64,000 bases of DNA, from positions 17,257 to 81,256 of the forward strand of contig CAKZLO010000034.1 in the NCBI GenBank assembly GCA_937127125.1. Reading direction: 5' to 3'. Under the pieces are notes generated by a model. The model saw only the letters and a list, made by a program, of their open reading frames with translations, did not search any database and had not been told where the DNA came from. This document shows positions 16,242 through 50,661 of this stretch, piece by piece (position 1 is the first letter of the stretch; every line of letters starts with the position of its first letter). Source of the DNA: an uncultured Ardenticatenia bacterium. GTDB lineage: Bacteria > Chloroflexota > Anaerolineae > 4572-78 > NAK82. Made by a program: the position numbers and the translations under genes.

Positions 16242-16368
16242 AGAGGCGCTATAATGTCTTGACTGCAGGCAGCGGCTCTCTCGCGGGCGTGGCAGGAATG
16301 CGTGAATGCTTTCACAAGGATGCAGTAATTTTTGACAAACCAGGTCAAGCCTGCTAATCTAAGTAAAG

Positions 16369-16442
16369 TCGGGGTGGTCGGACTTGAACCGACGACCTCT
16401 GCGTCCCAAACGCAGCGCGCTCGCCGACTGCGCCACACCCCG
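16369..16442 (-). tRNA. tRNA-Pro (anticodon UGG)
   Basis: The reverse complement reads CGGGGTGTGGCGCAGTCGGCGAGCGCGCTGCGTTTGGGACGCAGAGGTCGTCGGTTCAAGTCCGACCACCCCGA. It has a 7-bp acceptor stem, an anticodon stem CTGCG/CGCAG with loop TTTGGGA, and a GGTTCAAGTCC T-arm. No CCA is encoded. Confidence 0.9.
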
Positions 16443-16457
16443 CTATATGGTGAGGAT

Positions 16458-16486
16458 AGTATAATCTAACCTGGAGATTTGATCAA
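16458..16486 (-). promoter_or_regulatory. Putative tRNA-Pro promoter (TTGATC-17-TATACT on minus strand)
   Basis: Minus-strand TTGATC (16481-16486), a 17-nt spacer, and TATACT (16458-16463), with 15 nt between TATACT and the mature tRNA 5' end. Confidence 0.45.
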
Positions 16487-16759
16487 ATCGCCGGCTATGT
16501 CCGGGACGTAAGTGGAAACAAGAGTTCAATCTGATTGTAGGCTGGATGTTGTTGTCACTTTGAGACTGGTTGCCGGGCGTGCCGTCTCCCCTTTTTCAGG
16601 CATAGGGTTAGGGGGCTGAGCACGTCCGAGAGAGGGTCGTATGGATGGAATGATGTTGGTGTATGGAGTTTGTGAAGTGTATCACTTTTCCTCAGATCGT
16701 GGCATCGTAATGCTCACCCTGCGGAGTATCTCTCATAGAATTCTTGCCTTATTCTGTGC

Positions 16760-16769
16760 GTGATATCAC
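16760..16769. promoter_or_regulatory. Perfect 10-bp palindrome GTGATATCAC just upstream of the hdrC RBS (candidate operator)
   Basis: GTGATATCAC lies 23 nt before ATG 16792. A related GTGTATCACTT occurs about 84 nt upstream (16677-16687). Confidence 0.25.
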
Positions 16770-16791
16770 TTACCCAAGGAGGTATCTACCC

Positions 16792-17373
16792 ATGACAGCA
16801 ACTGCTATCGCTGCGCGAGCGCCCACGTTTCTTGAAGAGGTGATCGCGCGCACTCCTGGTGAGTCCCACCTGGAACGGTGTATCCAGTGTGGTACTTGTG
16901 GTGGTTCTTGTCCTTCCGGGGCAGATATGGAACACACCCCGCGTGGACTGTTCGCTCTGATCAATGCCGGCTTGAGGGAACTGGTCCTGCGTAGCAATGC
17001 CCCGTGGTATTGCGTGTCGTGCTATTACTGTACGGTGCGATGTCCCCAGCAGATCCATATCACCGACGTAATGTATACACTGAAACGCATGGCAATTGAT
17101 GAAGGCTACTACACGGAGTCGACAGCGCGTGATGCACCAGAGTTTTCCAAGACCTTCATCGATTTTGTGGAAAGCAATGGTCGCAGTTTTGAGCTCGGCT
17201 TGGCCACTGCTTACCACTTGCGCCATCGCCCGCTCAATGCTGTTGGTATGGTGCCAATGGCGGTGGGGATGCTTCGTCGTGGACGTATGGACCTCGTACC
17301 GACGAGGATCAAAGGCATCAAACAGCTCCAAGCGATTCTTAAGAGGGCCAAGGAATTGGGAGGTGCAAAATGA
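16792..17373 (+). CDS. hdrC: Heterodisulfide reductase subunit C-like (2x[4Fe-4S])
   Basis: Two ferredoxin motifs, CIQCGTCGGSCP and CVSCYYCTVRCP. ATG 16792 lies 9 nt after AAGGAGG. The track's earlier start at 16744 lacks an RBS. Confidence 0.8.
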   Translation: MTATAIAARAPTFLEEVIARTPGESHLERCIQCGTCGGSCPSGADMEHTPRGLFALINAGLRELVLRSNAPWYCVSCYYCTVRCPQQIHITDVMYTLKRMAIDEGYYTESTARDAPEFSKTFIDFVESNGRSFELGLATAYHLRHRPLNAVGMVPMAVGMLRRGRMDLVPTRIKGIKQLQAILKRAKELGGAK

Positions 17374-18332
17374 GGTACGGGTATTATCCCGGCTGTTCCC
17401 TCGAGCGCAGTGCGGCCGCTTATCACCAGTCGGCAATGGCTGTAGTGCAAACGTTGGGGATTGATCTGGTCGAGATTGACGATTGGAACTGTTGCGGGGC
17501 GACCGAGTACTTCTCAATCAACTTACTGCCTGCTTACGCCCTTGTGGCGCGCAACTTAGCGTTGGCGCAGGATCAGGGAATCAGCAATCAACTGGTGGCT
17601 CCATGTAGTGCCTGCTTCCTGAACCTTACCAAGACCGATCGGTATATGATGGAGTCTTCTAAACTGGCTGCTGACGTCAATGAGGCGCTGGCAGCTGGTG
17701 GGTTGCATTACACCCCTGGCACCGTACGGGTACGTCATCTGCTAGAGGTGATTGTGAATGACGTAGGCTACGATGCAGTAGCTGCACGGGTGAGCAAGCC
17801 GCTAACCGGATTGCGCGTAGCAGCTTACTATGGCTGCCTCATTGTGAGGCCAGGGTATGGAGGGATATTCGATGACCCGGAGCATCCTACTGCCTTGGAC
17901 AAGCTAATGCGTGTATTAGGTGCAGAGGTGGTGGATTTCCCGTTGCGAGCGCAGTGCTGTGGTGGTCATATGACACAGATCAGCCAGGAGGTGGCATTCG
18001 AGATGATCCGCCGTCTCCTGAAGAATGCCGCCGACTACGAGGCAGACGTGATCGTGACAGTGTGTCCTATGTGCCAGCTCAACTTGGATGCCTATCAACC
18101 CAACGTGAACCAGTTTTTCGGGACTGATTACACGATACCTGTGCTGTACTTTACCCAACTGATGGGGCTGGCCTTTGGTGCTTCCCCGATCGAATTAGGC
18201 ATCGGCAAGGAGTTTGTGGATGCTCGGCCTGCTCTGGATAAGATTGGGGTAGCGCTGCCGTTGACCGAAGCGCCACGTAGGCCGGAGAGACCAAAGGAGG
18301 CTCTTCCGATGCCGCGTATGGAGGAGGAATAA
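17370..18332 (+). CDS. hdrB: Heterodisulfide reductase subunit B-like (two CCG domains)
   Basis: 320 aa with YYPGCSL, WNCCGA and AQCCGGH cysteine-rich CCG motifs. ATGA overlap with hdrC. Confidence 0.85.
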   Translation: MRYGYYPGCSLERSAAAYHQSAMAVVQTLGIDLVEIDDWNCCGATEYFSINLLPAYALVARNLALAQDQGISNQLVAPCSACFLNLTKTDRYMMESSKLAADVNEALAAGGLHYTPGTVRVRHLLEVIVNDVGYDAVAARVSKPLTGLRVAAYYGCLIVRPGYGGIFDDPEHPTALDKLMRVLGAEVVDFPLRAQCCGGHMTQISQEVAFEMIRRLLKNAADYEADVIVTVCPMCQLNLDAYQPNVNQFFGTDYTIPVLYFTQLMGLAFGASPIELGIGKEFVDARPALDKIGVALPLTEAPRRPERPKEALPMPRMEEE

Positions 18333-18334
18333 AC

Positions 18335-20347
18335 ATGAACGAAGAACGCATTGGGGTATACGTATGCCATTGTGGCAGTAATATTGCTGGCACAGTGGCT
18401 GTGGAGGAGGTAGCTCAATGGGCTGCCAAGTTGCCAAATGTGGTGGTGTCGCGTGATTACAAATTTATGTGCTCCAGCTTGGGCCAGGAGCTGGTAGAAA
18501 AGGACATCAAGGAGCTCGGTCTGACACGCGTCGTGGTGGCAGCATGCTCCCCCCATATGCATGAGCGTACGTTCCGCGCGACATGCGAACGTGCAGGGCT
18601 GAATCCCTTCTTGTTCGAGATGGCCAATATCCGTGAGCTCGACTCGTGGGCGACGGATGATCGCGCGGCTGCGACCCAGAAAGCGAAGGCGATGGTGAGC
18701 GCGGCGGTGCGGCGTGTTGTTTACCATCAGCCTCTCCAATTGCTGCCGGTTAAGATCAATCCCAACACATTGATCGTCGGGGGAGGGGTAGCCGGCATTA
18801 CTGCCGCTTTGGAGATCGCTAACGCTGGTTATCACGTGTATCTAGTTGAGCGCGAACCCTCGATCGGTGGACATATGGCCCAGCTGGACAAGACGTTCCC
18901 TACGCTGGATTGCTCGGCATGCATTCTAACGCCTAAGATGGTGGACGTGGCTCAGAACAAGAATATTACTCTGCTCAGCTGGAGCCAGGTTGAGGCTGTT
19001 GAAGGATATGTGGGCAATTTCACTGTCACAGTGCGCAAGAAGGCGCGCTACGTGAACGAGGAGAAGTGCACGGGCTGCGGCATCTGTATCGAGAAGTGCC
19101 CCAAGAAGGTGATAGATGAAGTCTTTGAGGCAGGCTTGGGTTACCGCAAGGCAATCTATCGCCCCTTCCCGCAGGCGGTGCCCAAGTATCCGGTGATCGA
19201 TACGTCCAATTGTATTTTCTTCCAACGCGGTAAGTGCAAGGCTTGCCAGATGTTCTGCCCCACCGATGCGATAGACTTCGAGCAGCAGGACCAGATCCTC
19301 AAGCTCGAAGTGGGCAACATCATCTTGGCGATCGGGTACGACACTTTTGACCCGCGGCGTATCCCACAATACGGGTATGGCCGGCTAGCCAATGTGTTCA
19401 CCAGTCTTGAGTTTGAACGTATGGTCAATGCAGCTGGCCCCACAGGCGGTCGCATTGTATTGCGGGATGGGGTAACAACGCCTAAGAGTGTGGCGATCAT
19501 CCACTGTGTGGGATCGCGCGATAAGAACTACAACGAGCACTGTTCGCGCATTTGTTGCATGTACTCGCTGAAGTTCTCCCATCTCTTGCACGAGCGGTTG
19601 CCTGATGCCCAGGTGTATGAGTTCTACATTGATATTCGCGCCACGGCTAAGCGCTATGAGGAATTCTACCATCGCGTCTTGGAGGAAGGAACTCGCTTCA
19701 TCCGTGGTCGCGTGGCGGAGGTGACCGACGCGGCGCGTATGCCCGGTGAGGAAGGCAAACTAATCGTGCAGTATGAAGACACATTAATCGGCAAGCAGCG
19801 TCGCCTACCAGTGGACATGGTGATTCTGAGCCTTGGCATGGAAGCGCGCCGTGACTCGCGTGAGGTGGCCCAAATCTTTGGTCTAGGATGCGAGTACAAT
19901 GGCTTCTTCATCGAACGGCATCCCAAGCTCGATCCAGTTAACACAATGACCGAAGGCATCCAAATCGCTGGAGCGTGTCAGGGACCAATGGCCATTCCTG
20001 AGGCAGTAGCACAGGGGGCTGCTGCAGCCGCTCGTGTGCTCTCGTTGATCAGCCAGGGCACTGTGATGATGGAGCCGGTGCGGGCACACATCGATGCCGA
20101 CAAATGTTCCGGTTGTCGTATCTGCAACAACCTGTGCCCTTACAATGCGATAGTTTTCCACGAGGATCGCAAGGTTTCGGAGGTGATCACGGCGCTCTGC
20201 CAGGGGTGTGGCGCTTGTGTGGCGGCCTGCCCAAGTGCTGCGATTACTGGTGCTCATTTCACAGACGAGCAGGTAATGGCACAGATCGAGGGTATGCTGT
20301 GGGATGTGCAACCACAGTTTGCTATGACCTCTATGGAGACAAGGTGA
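18335..20347 (+). CDS. hdrA: Heterodisulfide reductase subunit A-like (FAD + multiple FeS)
   Basis: 670 aa with the FAD fold IVGGGVAGITAALEIA, the HdrA-specific CVGSRD...HCSRICC, and several CxxCxxCxxxCP ferredoxin motifs. Confidence 0.9.
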   Translation: MNEERIGVYVCHCGSNIAGTVAVEEVAQWAAKLPNVVVSRDYKFMCSSLGQELVEKDIKELGLTRVVVAACSPHMHERTFRATCERAGLNPFLFEMANIRELDSWATDDRAAATQKAKAMVSAAVRRVVYHQPLQLLPVKINPNTLIVGGGVAGITAALEIANAGYHVYLVEREPSIGGHMAQLDKTFPTLDCSACILTPKMVDVAQNKNITLLSWSQVEAVEGYVGNFTVTVRKKARYVNEEKCTGCGICIEKCPKKVIDEVFEAGLGYRKAIYRPFPQAVPKYPVIDTSNCIFFQRGKCKACQMFCPTDAIDFEQQDQILKLEVGNIILAIGYDTFDPRRIPQYGYGRLANVFTSLEFERMVNAAGPTGGRIVLRDGVTTPKSVAIIHCVGSRDKNYNEHCSRICCMYSLKFSHLLHERLPDAQVYEFYIDIRATAKRYEEFYHRVLEEGTRFIRGRVAEVTDAARMPGEEGKLIVQYEDTLIGKQRRLPVDMVILSLGMEARRDSREVAQIFGLGCEYNGFFIERHPKLDPVNTMTEGIQIAGACQGPMAIPEAVAQGAAAAARVLSLISQGTVMMEPVRAHIDADKCSGCRICNNLCPYNAIVFHEDRKVSEVITALCQGCGACVAACPSAAITGAHFTDEQVMAQIEGMLWDVQPQFAMTSMETR

Positions 20348-20351
20348 AACA

Positions 20352-20828
20352 ATGAACGACTCGTATGAACCCGTTATCGTCGGTTTCCTGTGCAACTGGT
20401 GTTCTTACCGTGCTGCTGACCTGGCTGGCACATCCCGTCTCCATTACGCACCAAATATGCGGCCTATTCGTGTGATGTGCAGCGCTCGAGTGGAGCCGCA
20501 GTTTGTCTTGAAAGCTCTGCGCGAGGGCGCTGATGGTGTGTTGATCGCAGGTTGCCACCCCGGTGAATGTCACTATGTGGATGGCAACATCAAAGCGCTA
20601 AGACGCTATGAACTGCTCAAGCGGATGTTGCGTCAACTGGGTATAGAAGAGGAGCGTGTCCAGCTCGTCTGGGCAGCAGCTTCCGAAGGTAATGTGCTGG
20701 CCGATGCAGTGAATCGTATGACCGAACAGCTGCGCCGCCTAGGGCCCTTGCGCTGGCGTGAGACAGTCTTGGGTGGCGATGCTCAGCCCGAAGAACGCGC
20801 TGGTGAAATGATGGCCAAGGAGGTTTGA
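20352..20828 (+). CDS. mvhD: Methyl-viologen-reducing hydrogenase delta subunit (MvhD-like)
   Basis: 158 aa with FLCNWCSY and GCHPGECHY, the cysteine pattern characteristic of MvhD. Confidence 0.85.
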   Translation: MNDSYEPVIVGFLCNWCSYRAADLAGTSRLHYAPNMRPIRVMCSARVEPQFVLKALREGADGVLIAGCHPGECHYVDGNIKALRRYELLKRMLRQLGIEEERVQLVWAAASEGNVLADAVNRMTEQLRRLGPLRWRETVLGGDAQPEERAGEMMAKEV

Positions 20829-20832
20829 CGTT

Positions 20833-21852
20833 ATGATGGCCAAGAAAAAACCGAGATTTGCCATGTACTGGGCGGCTTCTTGCGGTGGCTGTGAGATCTC
20901 GACACTCAACATCGGGGACAAGATTCTGGCGGTGGATGAAGCGTTTGACATCGCCTTCTGGCCGTGTGTGGCTGATTTCAAGGTGAAAGATGTTGAGAGG
21001 TATCCGGATGGCTATATTGACTTGTGTCTTTTCAATGGAGCTATCCGCAATTCCGAAAACGAGGAAATGGCCCACCTGCTGCGCGAGAAGTCGAAGGTGC
21101 TAGTCGCGTTTGGTTCGTGCGCCAGCGAGGGGTGTATTCCCGGCTTATCTAACCTGACCACTGCGCAGGCGACCTTGCGCGCGGTGTATCTGGATAACCC
21201 TTCTACGGACAATCCTAAGAAGGTGCTGCCACAACCATTTACCAAGGTCCCAGAGGGCACAATCCGAATCCCAGAATTCTACGAGCGCGTGAAGTCGCTT
21301 GACCAGGTGGTGCCAGTGGATTACGTGATGCCGGGTTGTCCACCAGAGGCGAAACAAATTGCGGCGGTAATGGATGCTGTTATCACAGGTGTCGCACTGC
21401 CCCCGCCTGGCCGGACTGTCATTGGTGCAGGTAATGTGGCGGTTTGTGAGGAATGTCCCCGTCAGAAGAACGTCAAACAGATCAAACGCTTTTACCGTCT
21501 CCATGAAATCACCCCGGATCCCGAGATCTGTCTGCTCGAGCAGGGCATCGTGTGTATGGGGATTGCCACGCGTGCTGGTTGTGGGGCGCTGTGCCCAAGG
21601 GTGAATATGCGCTGTGAGGGGTGTTACGGGCCGCTGAACGGCATAGAGGACCAAGGGGCCAACATGGTTGCGGCAATTGCCTCAGTAATTGAGGAGGGAT
21701 CGGGTCCGCTGGCTGGCGTTGATGAAGCTGAGCTGCAGCGCCGCATTGGCGAGATAATGGAAACCTTAGTCGACCCAGCGGGTACCTTCTATCGCTTCAA
21801 CATGGCTCACTCGCTGCTGATGCGTGCCCGTTTCAAAGGGGATGTTGTCTAG
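20833..21852 (+). CDS. mvhG: [NiFe]-hydrogenase small subunit (MvhG-like)
   Basis: 339 aa with the N-terminal proximal-cluster motif YWAASCGGCEIS, then GSCASEGCIPG, and C-terminal cysteine clusters. Confidence 0.8.
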   Translation: MMAKKKPRFAMYWAASCGGCEISTLNIGDKILAVDEAFDIAFWPCVADFKVKDVERYPDGYIDLCLFNGAIRNSENEEMAHLLREKSKVLVAFGSCASEGCIPGLSNLTTAQATLRAVYLDNPSTDNPKKVLPQPFTKVPEGTIRIPEFYERVKSLDQVVPVDYVMPGCPPEAKQIAAVMDAVITGVALPPPGRTVIGAGNVAVCEECPRQKNVKQIKRFYRLHEITPDPEICLLEQGIVCMGIATRAGCGALCPRVNMRCEGCYGPLNGIEDQGANMVAAIASVIEEGSGPLAGVDEAELQRRIGEIMETLVDPAGTFYRFNMAHSLLMRARFKGDVV

Positions 21853-21867
21853 AAAGGAGCAGCTTAG

Positions 21868-23349
21868 ATGAAGCAGATTATGATAGATCCAATCACGCGC
21901 TTGGAAGGCCACGGGAGGATTGACATCTTCCTGGATGACAAGGGTGAAGTAGCAAATACTTACTTTGTCATTCCTGAGCTGCGTGGTTTTGAACAGTTCT
22001 GCGTGGGACGACCGGTGGAGGAAATGCCCCGTATTACTAACCGCATTTGTGGCGTCTGTCCTGAAGCACACCACATGGCGGCCACTAAAGCATTAGATGC
22101 ACTCTACCATGTGGAACCCACGCCGGCGGCCAAGAAGATACGTGAAATGTTCTATTCGGCCTTCTATGTGGCGGATCATACCACGCATTTCTACGCGTTG
22201 GGTGGTCCTGATTTTGTGGTAGGCCCGGACGCTCCGCCAGCGGAACGAAATATCCTCGGTGTGGTGCACAAGGTGGGGTTGGAGATCGGCAAGCAGGTGA
22301 TTGATGCACGTGTCCGCAACCATCATGTCATTCAAATGGTGGGAGGACGAGGTGTCCATCCGGTGGCTGGTCTGCCTGGAGGCTGGAGTAAGTCTATAAC
22401 GAAGGAGGAACGGGACGAGATTGAGCAGATCGCCCGCCAGAACGTCGACTTTGGTCTGTTCAGCTTGAAGGTGTTCGAAGACATCGTGCTCAGCAACCAA
22501 GAATATGTAGACCTCATAACCTCTGATGTCTATACACATCGCACCTATTACATGGGTACAGTGGACGCCAGCAATCGCGTCAACTTCTACGATGGCATGG
22601 TGCGTGTGGTGGACCCAGACGGGAATGAATTCGTCAAGTATCATCCCAAGGACTACTTACAGCACATCGCGGAACACGTTGAGCCATGGACCTACCTTAA
22701 GTTTCCCTTCCTTAAGGCAGTTGGTTGGAAGGGATTCGTGGATGGGGTGGATAGTGGTGTCTATGTCGCTACACCCCTGTCACGATTGAATGCCGCGGAC
22801 GGCATGGCGACGCCGCGGGCGCAAGAAGCGTTTGAAAAGATGTACGAGACGCTGGGCAGCAAGAAGGTGAATGGGCGTTATGAGCCAGTGCACTTCCGAC
22901 TGGCGACCCATTGGGCACGGTTAATTGAGCTTTTGTATGCCGCCGAACGCATGTTGGAACTAATCGGTGATCCAGAGATCACTGACCCGAACACACGAGC
23001 ACCCATAACAGCCACTCCGGATGAAGGTGTAGGCTGTGTTGAAGCTCCCCGCGGCACACTAACACATCACTATTGGACAGACGAGCGAGGGATTCTGACG
23101 AAGGTGAACCTGATCGTGGGTACCACCAACAATTATGCACCCATCGCGATGTCTGTCAGGAAGGCGGCGCAATCTCTGATTAAGAAGGGCACTGTGATCA
23201 CGGATGGGCTGCTCAATCGTATCGAGATGGCTTTCCGGGCGTACGATCCTTGCTTGGGCTGTGCCACGCATTCGCTGCCGGGCCAAATGCCCTTGGAGGT
23301 GACCATTTACGCGCCGGATGGCAGCGTGATCGAGCATCTGAAGCGGTGA
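21868..23349 (+). CDS. mvhA: [NiFe]-hydrogenase large subunit (MvhA-like, probable group 3c)
   Basis: 493 aa with the L1 motif RICGVCPEAHH and L2 motif DPCLGCATH (23245-23271), followed by a 25-aa C-terminal tail of the kind removed by a maturation protease. Confidence 0.9.
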   Translation: MKQIMIDPITRLEGHGRIDIFLDDKGEVANTYFVIPELRGFEQFCVGRPVEEMPRITNRICGVCPEAHHMAATKALDALYHVEPTPAAKKIREMFYSAFYVADHTTHFYALGGPDFVVGPDAPPAERNILGVVHKVGLEIGKQVIDARVRNHHVIQMVGGRGVHPVAGLPGGWSKSITKEERDEIEQIARQNVDFGLFSLKVFEDIVLSNQEYVDLITSDVYTHRTYYMGTVDASNRVNFYDGMVRVVDPDGNEFVKYHPKDYLQHIAEHVEPWTYLKFPFLKAVGWKGFVDGVDSGVYVATPLSRLNAADGMATPRAQEAFEKMYETLGSKKVNGRYEPVHFRLATHWARLIELLYAAERMLELIGDPEITDPNTRAPITATPDEGVGCVEAPRGTLTHHYWTDERGILTKVNLIVGTTNNYAPIAMSVRKAAQSLIKKGTVITDGLLNRIEMAFRAYDPCLGCATHSLPGQMPLEVTIYAPDGSVIEHLKR

Positions 23350-23852
23350 GAAACAAGACTCTGGTATTAGGGTTGGGCAATCCCATCCTGAGCGATGATG
23401 GCGTGGGGGTGCGGGTGGCGGAGGCAGTACGAACGTCTCTGCCACCCAACGTGCCTGTTGACGTATGCGAGCTCAGTGTGGGCGGGCTGCGACTTATGGA
23501 ACAGATGCTCGGGTATGAGCGTGTCATTCTGATCGATGCGATGCAACCCGGCCACGGAGAGCCTGGCACCTTTCAACGTCTCTCCTACGACCAACTGGTA
23601 TCCCTTTGTCCAACCCAACATATGACGTGTGTGCATGATGCCAGTTTAGTGACCGCCTTGGAGACCGCACGGCGTATGGGACTTCCGGTGCCCCGTGAGA
23701 TTGTCATCTATGCAATTGCCGTGCAAGACGTCTGTAGTTTCAGCGAAGAGCTGACGCCTGCCGTAGCGCGCACACTACCAGCCGTGCTGACCGCTGTATT
23801 GGAAGAGCTTGATATTCCTGTCCGAGAGGAGGAATCCCATGGTCTCAACTGA
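23346..23852 (+). CDS. Hydrogenase maturation endopeptidase (HycI/HoxW/FrhD family)
   Basis: The GTG at 23346 overlaps the mvhA stop (GTGA). The N-terminus is RNKTLVLGLGNPILSDDGVGVRVAE, followed by ILIDA, typical of this protease family. Confidence 0.8.
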   Translation: MRNKTLVLGLGNPILSDDGVGVRVAEAVRTSLPPNVPVDVCELSVGGLRLMEQMLGYERVILIDAMQPGHGEPGTFQRLSYDQLVSLCPTQHMTCVHDASLVTALETARRMGLPVPREIVIYAIAVQDVCSFSEELTPAVARTLPAVLTAVLEELDIPVREEESHGLN

Positions 23853-24291
23853 GCTATTGCGTCGTTATCCATTCTTTAGCGGTTTGGACGAGGAACGTTT
23901 GGTTTTCTTGGCTAAGGTGGCACAGCAAGACTCGGTGGCAGCAGGCGAGTATTTCTTTCGCGACGGTGACACACTTGACAGTCTCTATATTCTTATGGAT
24001 GGAGAAGTGGCGATTACTGCAACCCTACCCAAAGGACGCGAGATCGTGCTCAGCACGGTCAGTCCTGGGGAGGTATTTGCTTGGTCCGCATTAGTGCCAC
24101 CCTACCAAGCCACCTCCGCCGCCAAGGCGGTCACACCGTGTCAGGTGCTTGCACTGAATTGTGTTCCGTTGCGTGCGCGGTGCGAGGAGGATCATACACT
24201 AGGATATGCGATCATGGCGCAACTGGCACAGGTTATGCGTGATCGCATACGAAGTATGCGCATGGAGACGATCGCCTGTCTAGCGGAGTAG
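23839..24291 (+). CDS. Stand-alone cyclic-nucleotide-binding-like domain protein (no output domain)
   Basis: 150 aa with FFSGLDEERL...GEYFFRDGD...LYILMDGEV...GEVFAWSALV, a CNB beta-barrel pattern. There is no HTH. The start overlaps the protease gene by 14 nt. Confidence 0.7.
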   Translation: MVSTELLRRYPFFSGLDEERLVFLAKVAQQDSVAAGEYFFRDGDTLDSLYILMDGEVAITATLPKGREIVLSTVSPGEVFAWSALVPPYQATSAAKAVTPCQVLALNCVPLRARCEEDHTLGYAIMAQLAQVMRDRIRSMRMETIACLAE

Positions 24292-48986: not shown

Positions 48987-49640
48987 CTACAGGCATTCGG
49001 TCCGTTTCAATGTCAAGGTTTCACATTCAGCCTGAAAAGACAACTGACTACAAAAAGATTGCCAATCCTCAGGGGTGTCTAGGTCGAATGCCAGAGTCGG
49101 GGTTCGCAGAACGGTAGGCCGAACACCAATCAAGCGCGCAGAGGCCAGATGGCGGGGAAAGCTCGCTGGTCCGAATGCGAACGGAATAAGCAACGGCGGT
49201 CGCATCAGCAGTGCATTTGTCCCTATGCTTCGTCGACACGGAGCGATAACCACGGCAGGCGCATCAGTTGCTAGGCGTAGCAACGTTTGTACATCCCTAT
49301 CCGTAAGAAAGGGCAGATCGGTTGGCAGTACCAGAATTCCATCGGCACCACAAGCAGATGCAAAGTGACTTGCTTGTGTGAGCGCAGCGTTCAGATCACT
49401 ACCCTCTTCTTTCAATGGCAAGCCTCCTCCCATTTGTGTGTCCTTGAGCACCCGCGGATCACGGCTGATCACCACTACGCGGGCAAAGTGACGTCGCGTC
49501 AGACGTAGCACGCGGCTGAGCAACCAACGGCTCAGCCACATGCGTTGGGTAACATTGAGACAGGCCGCTAGGCGCGTTTTTGCCTCTTGGTAAGGCTTGC
49601 ATGGCACAATGCACACAATGGAGACAGATCCACTGGGCAT
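48987..49640 (-). CDS. cofC: 2-phospho-L-lactate guanylyltransferase (F420 biosynthesis, CofC/FbiD-like)
   Basis: IVPCKPYQEAKTRLA, LPTDLPFL and GTNALL patterns of the CofC family. It lies immediately downstream of cofD. Confidence 0.65.
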   Translation of the reverse strand: MPSGSVSIVCIVPCKPYQEAKTRLAACLNVTQRMWLSRWLLSRVLRLTRRHFARVVVISRDPRVLKDTQMGGGLPLKEEGSDLNAALTQASHFASACGADGILVLPTDLPFLTDRDVQTLLRLATDAPAVVIAPCRRSIGTNALLMRPPLLIPFAFGPASFPRHLASARLIGVRPTVLRTPTLAFDLDTPEDWQSFCSQLSFQAECETLTLKRTECL

Positions 49641-49647
49641 ATGCTGA

Positions 49648-50661
49648 TCAACCTTGCAGGGCAAATTGGAGGATTTCGCGTGCTAGGCGCGCACGATCTG
49701 GTTCGTCGCGCATTATGATGTCAGTTGCCAGGGTACGGATACCCATCTGCTCAGCAATCACAGCAGCGCACGGAACATCCTGACGGTCAAGCACAAAGCC
49801 GGTGAGTAGATCACGATAGTGTGCCGCGACTGTCACAGGTGAAGCTTCCATGTTCAGCTCGTTCATCATCTTGGCAGCAGGTCCTTTAAGGGCCCGTCCT
49901 GCCACAATGGGAGAGATGGCGATGCGTGGCGCACGCACAGTGCTCAGGATACGTCGCATTGCTGGCAACGCGAGAATAGGGTCCAAGCTGACGAACGGGT
50001 TGGAGGGTCCAAACAAGATCACATCGGCGTTGCGCAGCGCACTGACTACCTCTCGTGTAGGCTGTGCTTGCTCAATCCCCTCAAAGCGGACACCCTTTAT
50101 CCTTGGCTGCCATGCGTAGCGCACGAAATACTCTTGGAAGGCTATTTCCCCATTTTCTGTAAGTACTCGTGTATGGACTGGATCGTCGCTCATCGGCAGT
50201 ATCGTCTGAGGCACACCCAGCAGCCAACACAATTGACGGGTGACCCAAGTGAGCGGAAATCCCTCGCGCAACCATTGGCTACGCAACAAATGGGTGGCCA
50301 GATCGCGATCGCCCAAGCGAAACCAAGTGGGTGCTTCGTAACAAGCCAGCATGGCGAGCGTATTCCACGTGTCATCTTTTATACCCCAGCCGGTCTCAGG
50401 GTTCACCAGGCCGGCGAGCGTGTACATCACTGTATCCAGGTCCGGCGAGATATGCAGTCCCAGATGTTCAAAGTCATCGGCGGTGTTGACCACGAATGTC
50501 AAACGTTCCGGAGGCAACAACTGTGCTAATCCGGAGGCCAGCTTGGCGCCACCTACTCCTCCGAGCAATGCCACAATATTAACTTCAGGGAGCTCGGAGT
50601 TAACAACTTGCGCAATTGAAGTGTCTTGTCTCTCTTCTTCGTGGTGTACTGCTGCATCCAT
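49648..50661 (-). CDS. cofD: 2-phospho-L-lactate transferase (F420 biosynthesis)
   Basis: 337 aa with LLGGVGGAKLA, NTADDFEHLGLHISPDLD and GPSNPFVS motifs. Confidence 0.85.
   Translation of the reverse strand: MDAAVHHEEERQDTSIAQVVNSELPEVNIVALLGGVGGAKLASGLAQLLPPERLTFVVNTADDFEHLGLHISPDLDTVMYTLAGLVNPETGWGIKDDTWNTLAMLACYEAPTWFRLGDRDLATHLLRSQWLREGFPLTWVTRQLCWLLGVPQTILPMSDDPVHTRVLTENGEIAFQEYFVRYAWQPRIKGVRFEGIEQAQPTREVVSALRNADVILFGPSNPFVSLDPILALPAMRRILSTVRAPRIAISPIVAGRALKGPAAKMMNELNMEASPVTVAAHYRDLLTGFVLDRQDVPCAAVIAEQMGIRTLATDIIMRDEPDRARLAREILQFALQG

Follow-up and report, generated by a model that had tools for sequence, protein, structure and literature searches.

What do bacterial complexes of a group 3c [NiFe] hydrogenase and a heterodisulfide reductase (Hdr) reduce? 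The question is of bioenergetic interest and general to this enzyme class. It is raised here by an operon in a 64,000-nucleotide stretch of DNA from an uncultured Ardenticatenia bacterium of the phylum Chloroflexota (contig CAKZLO010000034.1). This 64-kb stretch, referred to below as the window, is the extent of the genome that was examined. Eight co-directional genes on its + strand (16792-24291), overlapping or spaced by at most 15 nt, encode homologues of the six subunits of the methanogen MvhAGD-HdrABC complex, a maturation protease and a small protein with a cyclic nucleotide monophosphate (cNMP)-binding fold. An earlier note on the sequence had described eight tightly packed hdrCBA-mvhDGA-protease-CNB genes with ATGA/GTGA overlaps, and this description was confirmed by the open reading frames (ORFs), by Pfam and NCBIfam assignments and by two contigs of the Joint Genome Institute (JGI). 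As argued in the following, the operon probably encodes a cytoplasmic six-subunit bifurcating complex homologous to MvhAGD-HdrABC, with an acceptor other than the heterodisulfide of coenzyme M and coenzyme B (CoM-S-S-CoB), together with the protease for its maturation and a small protein with a sensor domain.

The substrate pocket of HdrB

In the Hdr structure of Methanothermococcus thermolithotrophicus (5ODR), Arg201 binds the carboxylate of CoB, Arg14 and Arg240 bind its phosphonate, and the sulfonate of CoM is held by the backbone NH of Gly46 and Gly198 (PMC13261682). The C-terminal part of HdrC helps to form the substrate crevice (PMC13261682). Four methanogen HdrB sequences were therefore aligned with the window HdrB and with 45 HdrB homologues from related loci (Table 1). 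As a reference check, 5odc_B has R, G, G, R and R at positions 14, 46, 198, 201 and 240.

Table 1. Conservation of cluster ligands and substrate-binding residues in HdrB (numbering of 5ODR)
Position or motif	Methanogens	Window	Bacterial homologues
10 CCG cysteines	Cys	Cys	invariant in 45/45
Arg14	Arg	Ser	Arg in 0/45
Arg201	Arg	Thr	Arg in 0/45
Arg240	Arg, except Val in M. marburgensis	Ala	Arg in 0/45
CCPAPG (includes Gly46)	CCPAPG	CCGATE (Glu at 46)	CCGAT[E/T] in 40/45
CCGAGGGVR loop (includes Gly198)	intact	2 residues shorter	same in 45/45

The ten CCG cysteines (C9, 41, 42, 79, 82, 156, 196, 197, 232 and 235), whose loss the earlier note had named as a possible objection, were all kept on alignment. 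As judged from these residues, HdrB has an intact redox machinery but not an intact CoM-S-S-CoB pocket. Across the bacterial clade the CoB-binding arginines are uniformly absent, which excludes by sequence a substrate like that of the methanogens, and since the CoM loops are remodelled in addition, the acceptor is by this evidence not CoM-S-S-CoB. Compared with CoB-CoM heterodisulfide reductases sensu stricto, the window proteins retain the CCG cysteines and the HdrA ligands, but lack the CoB/CoM residues and fall below the NCBIfam cut-offs. The window protein would thus be Hdr-like in its working, yet should not be classed as a CoB-CoM heterodisulfide reductase. As true acceptor, a different disulfide or a sulfur compound is most likely. 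The 'unknown disulfide substrate' that the earlier note had assigned to the module is borne out in so far as the CoB-binding arginines are missing from HdrB.

Candidates for the acceptor were sought in the gene neighborhood. The comparison covered 80 loci related by MvhA, to which all counts out of 80 refer, and every ORF of at least 150 aa in these loci was clustered. No recurrent thiol-carrier or acceptor gene was present among these clustered ORFs. The earlier note had asked for DsrC/TusE-like and CoM/CoB genes; none was found within the 64-kb window, neither among its annotated ORFs nor among the small intergenic ORFs, and the same was true of hyp genes. The intergenic small ORFs, which were read by eye and without a Pfam scan, included no evident DsrC/TusE-like protein; all that they yielded was an S9 fragment, an ORF with a zinc finger and a small ORF resembling ferredoxin. 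Because a syntenic thiol-carrier gene is lacking, the acceptor would have to be sought by genome-wide co-occurrence or by biochemistry, not in the neighborhood. For this purpose the window is no more tractable than the hundreds of public genomes with the same operon.

A precedent is given by the Hdr-type complexes of sulfate reducers, which are proposed to reduce DsrC, the 'bacterial heterodisulfide', in PMC5947623 (citing Venceslau 2014). They resemble the window system as bacterial HdrABC proteins with a non-CoM/CoB acceptor. In contrast to them, neither dsrC nor dsrAB was seen in the window or in the conserved neighborhoods.

One 74-aa ORF in an intergenic gap of the window carries ferredoxin-like Cys motifs (CRGCLLCATECP). 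It lies 35 kb from the operon.

Subunit matches to the solved methanogen complex

Families were assigned with Pfam and NCBIfam models, and the equivalog cut-offs were used as thresholds. Five of the six Hdr and Mvh subunits aligned over their full length to chains of solved Mvh-Hdr complexes, and HdrC aligned with its N-terminal ~90 residues only. With this restriction for HdrC, the six subunits match the solved complex, and the proposal of a methanogen-type module in a bacterium is supported. HdrA matched 5odc_A with 734 bits (residues 1-657 of 670), and the alignment keeps the flavin adenine dinucleotide (FAD) fingerprint GGGVAGI, the motifs DCSACIL, CVGSRD and CSRICCMY and four ferredoxin-type Cys motifs. 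Full-length matches of 158-178 bits were obtained for HdrB with HdrB of four methanogens. HdrC reached 63-70 bits with 8rvv_C and 5odc_C, and the matched residues include both CxxCxxCxxxCP motifs. For MvhD, the corresponding chains of 9sw2 and 5odc gave 152-156 bits, and CNWC, MCS and GCHxGxCH were kept. MvhG matched 5odc_E over residues 8-325 (195 bits), and the cysteines of the proximal, medial and distal clusters were all aligned. For MvhA, 358-368 bits were obtained with 9sw2_F and 5odc_F, and the cysteine pairs of L1 and L2 were kept. The inspected cofactor-ligand cysteines are hence conserved in HdrA, HdrB (10/10), HdrC, MvhD, MvhG and MvhA.

Among the closest known systems is MvhAGD-HdrABC of hydrogenotrophic methanogens (M. 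thermolithotrophicus, 5ODC; also the entries 9SW2 and 8RVU), which has the same six subunits and whose inspected Fe-S, FAD and [NiFe] ligand motifs are kept in the window. Both also share a C-terminal tail of MvhA for processing by a protease. The window system differs in its bacterial host, in the unrelated C-terminal half of HdrC and in the organization of hdr and mvh as a single operon, hdrCBA-mvhDGA, that includes the protease and sensor-domain genes. It further differs in HdrB, which lacks the CoB-binding Arg14, Arg201 and Arg240 and has changed CoM-binding glycine loops. The best-scoring curated model for both HdrA and MvhD was the Methanosarcina-type HdrA2, an HdrA-MvhD fusion (NF040770). 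HdrA covered its positions 1-641 of 777 (847 bits) and MvhD its positions 645-774 (182 bits). The window system differs from Methanosarcina-type HdrA2 in that HdrA and MvhD have a gene each and are joined by a hydrogenase, and HdrA stays below the model's cut-off of 1100.

Classification of the hydrogenase

MvhA of the window carries RICGVCPEAHH as L1 and RAYDPCLGCATH as L2, both of which agree with the published MvhA signatures ICGxCxxxH (L1) and AYDPCxxCATH (L2) (PMC6085437). RICGVCPEAHH, DPCLGCATH and a cleavable tail had been reported before and were all recovered in mvhA, where the C-terminal tail after DPCLGCATH comprises 25 residues. The closest curated family was VhuA (381 bits). Among the sequences of the Protein Data Bank (PDB), the large subunit of the NiFe-Bfu enzyme of Acetomicrobium mobile (7t2r_D) gave the top score with 391 bits. 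MvhA/VhuA followed with 347-368 bits and the group 3d enzyme HoxH with 305 bits, and groups 3a and 3b reached about 90-100 bits.

Because the top PDB match was A. mobile, ahead of MvhA/VhuA, the window protein and 11 homologues encoded in related loci were placed in a neighbor-joining tree with five PDB sequences, HoxH serving as root. In this tree, which contains few sequences and a single group 3d sequence as root, the bacterial clade was sister to methanogen MvhA/VhuA, and A. mobile branched outside. The small subunit was of the full-length MvhG type, with 195 bits compared to 81 for the truncated HydS (7t2r_E) and 60 for HoxY (5xf9_C). Together, the placement in the tree, the MvhG-type small subunit, the adjacent mvhD and hdrCBA genes and the absence of HydABC genes point to a position of the window hydrogenase on the group 3c side. 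The membership of the large subunit in group 3c, for which the earlier note had proposed a check, therefore agrees with the scores and with a tree that puts it on the MvhA/VhuA side. Identical MvhA proteins are present in NCBI and JGI, and close homologues are annotated as 'F420-non-reducing hydrogenase large subunit'.

A Bfu-type hydrogenase like that of A. mobile was considered and rejected. The large subunit of A. mobile NiFe-HydABCSL (7T2R) is the best PDB match to the window MvhA (43% identity), but its small subunit is a truncated form of 179 aa, in contrast to the full-length MvhG of the window. NiFe-HydABCSL further has HydABC/NuoEF-like partners, whereas neither the operon nor its flanks contain HydABC (NuoEFG-like) genes. 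In the tree, A. mobile lies outside the clade of Mvh and the bacterial sequences. Its bifurcation chemistry is based on flavin mononucleotide and differs from that of Mvh-Hdr (PMC9304861).

Proposed mechanism and alternative readings

In the bifurcating complex proposed above, H2 would be split at the [NiFe] site of MvhA. MvhG with its three clusters and then MvhD with its [2Fe-2S] cluster would relay the electrons to the FAD of HdrA, where the electron pair would be bifurcated. One electron would travel uphill via the ferredoxin domains of HdrA to ferredoxin. The other would be transferred via HdrC to the non-cubane clusters of HdrB and from there to an acceptor other than CoM-S-S-CoB. Run in reverse in a fermenting cell, the complex could make H2. 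The literature gives the same role to group 3c hydrogenases with HdrABC in Chloroflexi (PMC6085437; bioRxiv 10.1101/2021.08.23.457424).

Several observations weigh against this assignment. All six Hdr and Mvh subunits remained below the NCBIfam equivalog cut-offs; HdrC reached 85.8 bits on TIGR03290 (cut-off 160), HdrB 207 bits on TIGR03288 (cut-off 345), and HdrA 604 against a cut-off of 1400. The identity of MvhA to methanogen MvhA is ~41%, compared to 38% to a group 3d enzyme, and methanogen HdrC gives no alignment for the C-terminal half of the window HdrC. A ferredoxin or acceptor gene linked to the operon was present neither in the 80-locus neighborhoods nor in the window. Moreover, bifurcation in the bacterial clade is argued from homology only, and the assembly of the complex, the direction in which it runs and the nature of the acceptor are likewise inferred.

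A more specific reading, which we regard as possible but doubtful, is that the rebuilt HdrBC pocket reduces none of the known Hdr substrates (CoM-S-S-CoB, DsrC and lipoyl-LbpA). It would act instead on a low-molecular-weight disulfide specific to Chloroflexota, on a polysulfide or on a quinone, possibly with the CRP/FNR-fold protein as a dedicated ligand-sensing partner. This reading is put forward on account of the missing CoB-binding arginines, the altered CoM loops and the different C-terminal half of HdrC.

The same architecture might also pass the high-potential electron from HdrBC to a quinone (menaquinone) at the membrane surface, by analogy with SdhE, the CCG-domain 'anchor' of type E succinate:quinone or methylmenaquinol:fumarate reductases (MFR). 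HdrB obtained nearly the same score with the SdhE model NF042965 (199 bits over the full length) as with TIGR03288, and a weak match (47 bits) connects the C-terminal half of HdrC with the C-terminus of the MFR SdhB model. In addition, a 670-aa hydrophobic HdrD-like protein that replaces hdrCB in paralogous loci (see below) could plausibly contact the quinone pool. However, no evident hydrophobic segment was seen by eye in HdrB or HdrC, and HdrB has an additional C-terminal tail that is charged and rich in proline. Neither sdhA nor sdhB is located nearby, and the similarity to SdhE may merely reflect a common CCG ancestry. Transfer to quinone is therefore considered unlikely.

Alternatively, the enzyme could be a non-bifurcating H2:acceptor oxidoreductase in which Mvh, via HdrA, supplies HdrBC with electrons for thiol/disulfide homeostasis or for the reduction of sulfur, without coupling to ferredoxin. 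Such a function would fit the lack of a linked ferredoxin gene in the 80 loci, the divergence of the clade from characterized enzymes and an acceptor that is still to be named. It is rendered improbable by HdrA, which keeps the complete FAD and ferredoxin-domain motifs of the bifurcating enzyme and is about as conserved as MvhA: its identity to the window protein is typically 67-96%, compared to 40-92% for HdrB and HdrC.

Finally, a genuine CoB-CoM heterodisulfide reductase, an archaeal contaminant or a very recent transfer from a methanogen, for which only the overall homology to methanogen Mvh-Hdr speaks, is effectively refuted by the absent CoB-binding arginines and altered CoM loops, by scores that are all below the equivalog cut-offs, by the low identity of MvhA to methanogens, by a flat G+C content, by bacterial housekeeping flanks that are conserved across species and assemblies, and by a tree with a deep sister relationship and no nesting in a methanogen genus.

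Genomic context of the operon

The G+C content was flat across the window (0.52-0.58). The operon is flanked by bacterial housekeeping genes encoding HIT, acyl-CoA synthetase, RsmF, signal peptidase, two DUF2298 membrane proteins, UvrA, enzymes of the shikimate pathway and UDP-glucose dehydrogenase. In the closest species representatives listed (L001-L003, with MvhA 92-94% identical), uvrA is located 3' of the operon in all three, and a DUF2298 gene precedes it in L001 and L003, the two loci that reach far enough upstream. Two independent JGI metagenome assemblies showed an identical arrangement including the flanks. Since G+C content, housekeeping flanks, related species and both assemblies agree, the operon is native to the genome. 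A foreign or contaminant contig, which the earlier note had named as a possible objection, was rejected on these same observations.

Distribution, variants and previous descriptions

The nearest genomes by MvhA, among the matches listed, were those of Anaerolineae bacterium KM4338-58 (94%) and Ardenticatenia bacterium Nak82 (92%), both uncultured Chloroflexota. A protein search with MvhA gave at least 8000 matches, and the best 120 clusters were all at least 79% identical. At least 579 relatives were present among species-representative genomes. Relatives with MvhA 71-94% identical carry the same gene order, which was observed in 36 of the 80 related loci and in most of those reaching far enough upstream. 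Where a locus extends far enough, hdrCBA-mvhDGA-protease is usually kept, often with the cNMP-fold gene next. Counted by gene, mvhG was present in 78 of the 80 loci, mvhD in 71, hdrA in 67 and the protease gene in 63, and hdrB and hdrC, which lie upstream of hdrA, in 46-47. Besides the operon genes, an HdrD-like protein (16 loci), EtfB/EtfA (8 loci, of the same paralogous type) and a response regulator (16 loci) were recurrent.

Clusters of this kind have been described before. A Chloroflexi/Proteobacteria clade of MvhA is known, and among genomes with genes for Mvh-Hdr, 26% are bacterial (PMC6085437). In bioRxiv 10.1101/2021.08.23.457424, a group 3c hydrogenase preceded by HdrABC is reported for Anaerolinea and Dehalococcoidia, sometimes with ETF and HdrD, and group 3c-Hdr enzymes are counted among the most abundant hydrogenases in Chloroflexota. 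The genes drawn there are HdrC2, HdrB2, HdrA2, a hydrogenase Fe-S subunit, a hydrogenase and a HycI protease. Phylum, gene set and proposed bifurcating role are the same as for the window, and there is essentially no difference. The window operon is thus a further copy of an already described system that is very common in Chloroflexota. Its rarity had been over-rated in the earlier note, as the same arrangement is widespread in this phylum and already published.

Several variants were observed among the related loci. A second, paralogous hdrA-mvhDGA locus (L009:566-6435, also L010; about 16 of 80 loci) is carried in addition by some of the same metagenome-assembled genomes (MAGs), H106_27 and Nak82. 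Here EtfB, EtfA and a 670-aa protein replace hdrCB, and no protease gene follows. The 670-aa HdrD-like protein, found in 16 of the 80 loci, has Fe-S and HdrD-like Cys motifs, and its N-terminal half looks hydrophobic by eye. The ETF/HdrD variant is already mentioned in bioRxiv 10.1101/2021.08.23.457424.

Three loci from MAGs of Acidobacteriota and Nitrospirota (L063, L064 and L067) have the order mvhG-mvhA-protease-hdrA-mvhD, with a divergent hdrA (39-40% identity) and no hdrCB detected within the locus. Chloroflexota-type hdrCBA-mvhDGA-protease with MvhA 77-80% identical was also present in a MAG labelled Pseudomonadota (L018) and in one labelled Nitrospirota (L049), which suggests mis-binning or lateral transfer.

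Operon layout and the cNMP-fold protein

The features of the operon and of the remaining window are listed in Table 2. The Shine-Dalgarno sequence AAGGAGG ends 9 nt before the ATG of hdrC. The start of hdrB overlaps the end of hdrC as ATGA, and the GTG start of the protease gene overlaps the TGA stop of mvhA as GTGA. The endopeptidase would remove the C-terminal tail of MvhA. A pattern scan for promoters and terminators gave sites that were no more numerous than in shuffled sequence, so that no promoter was assigned, and revealed no convincing terminator inside the eight-gene operon. The tRNA gene that had been reported to adjoin the cluster is a tRNA-Pro(UGG), 350 bp upstream.

Table 2. Features of the window
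Feature	Position	Strand	Remarks
Two adjacent DUF2298 membrane proteins, 1602 aa and 890 aa	8764..16241		directly 5' of the operon
tRNA-Pro(UGG)	16368..16442	-
Leader/promoter region, non-coding	16443..16791	+	between tRNA-Pro and hdrC; Shine-Dalgarno AAGGAGG at 16776-16782
hdrC-like, 193 aa	16792..17373	+	two CxxCxxCxxxCP [4Fe-4S] motifs; Pfam Fer4_8, Fer4_9, Fer4_17 (Fer4 dicluster)
hdrB-like, 320 aa	17370..18332	+	Pfam CCG x2, E 1.9e-28; presumed acceptor-reducing site
hdrA, 670 aa	18335..20347	+	FAD and multi-[4Fe-4S] flavoprotein; presumed bifurcation site; NCBIfam HdrA2 847 bits
mvhD, 158 aa	20352..20828	+	[2Fe-2S] connector subunit; Pfam FlpD E 2.8e-53
mvhG, 339 aa	20833..21852	+	[NiFe]-hydrogenase small subunit, three Fe-S clusters; Pfam Oxidored_q6
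mvhA, 493 aa	21868..23349	+	[NiFe]-hydrogenase large subunit, appears on group 3c side; Pfam NiFeSe_Hases
Maturation endopeptidase, 168 aa	23346..23852	+	Pfam HycI; TIGR00072 106.5 bits vs cut-off 47; HycI/TIGR00072 E 1.1e-30
Stand-alone CRP/FNR-type (cNMP-binding-fold) sensor-domain protein, 150 aa	23839..24291	+	Pfam cNMP_binding E 5.6e-17; alternative TTG start at 23809
cofC	48987..49664		F420 biosynthesis
cofD	49648..50661		F420 biosynthesis
ORF, 394 aa	50805..51989		no Pfam match at E <= 1e-6; no NCBIfam match at E <= 1e-10
ORF, 633 aa	56034..57935		no Pfam match at E <= 1e-6
ORF, 74 aa	59611..59835		ferredoxin-like Cys motifs

Independent gene calls were available from the two JGI metagenome contigs with identical MvhA. 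The same eight genes were called on both, and on one of them all product lengths match those of the window (193, 320, 670, 158, 339, 493, 168 and 150 aa). On the second contig hdrC was called at 148 aa (L082:5060-5506), with no Pfam match on record, and this short form may stem from a difference in the start site or in the sequence of the 5' end of the gene.

The last protein of the operon had been called 'CNB-like'. The cNMP-binding fold was confirmed by Pfam, and the description needs correction in two respects. The protein has no DNA-binding (helix-turn-helix) domain, and its canonical phosphate-binding Arg appears to be absent or replaced, as read by eye from sequences aligned to references other than a cAMP-bound one. 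Its nearest solved structure is 3mdp_A (68 bits), a stand-alone, uncharacterized cNMP-domain protein of 142 aa. Both share S-x-L-x-x-PY-x-x-TS-x-A at the site where CRP has its phosphate-binding residues. The gene is located 3' of the protease gene or of mvhA in about 51-62 of the 80 loci, and it is not named in the quoted legend of the gene-context figure of bioRxiv 10.1101/2021.08.23.457424. A role of the cNMP-fold protein as a DsrC-like dithiol/disulfide substrate was considered and rejected, as none of its four cysteines is conserved (at best in 30 of 63 sequences).

Other features of the window

F420 biosynthesis genes had been noted in the same window, and CofC and CofD were both verified with scores above the NCBIfam equivalog cut-offs. 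Among the annotated ORFs of the window there are no other F420 genes, and nothing ties CofC and CofD to the hydrogenase operon. Two further ORFs, of 633 and 394 aa, are without a family match at the thresholds given in Table 2. Directly 5' of the operon, two very large DUF2298 membrane proteins are encoded side by side, the larger of which (1602 aa) also contains a PMT_2 glycosyltransferase domain. The gene for the 890-aa protein occupies the same position directly 5' of the operon in L001 and L003.

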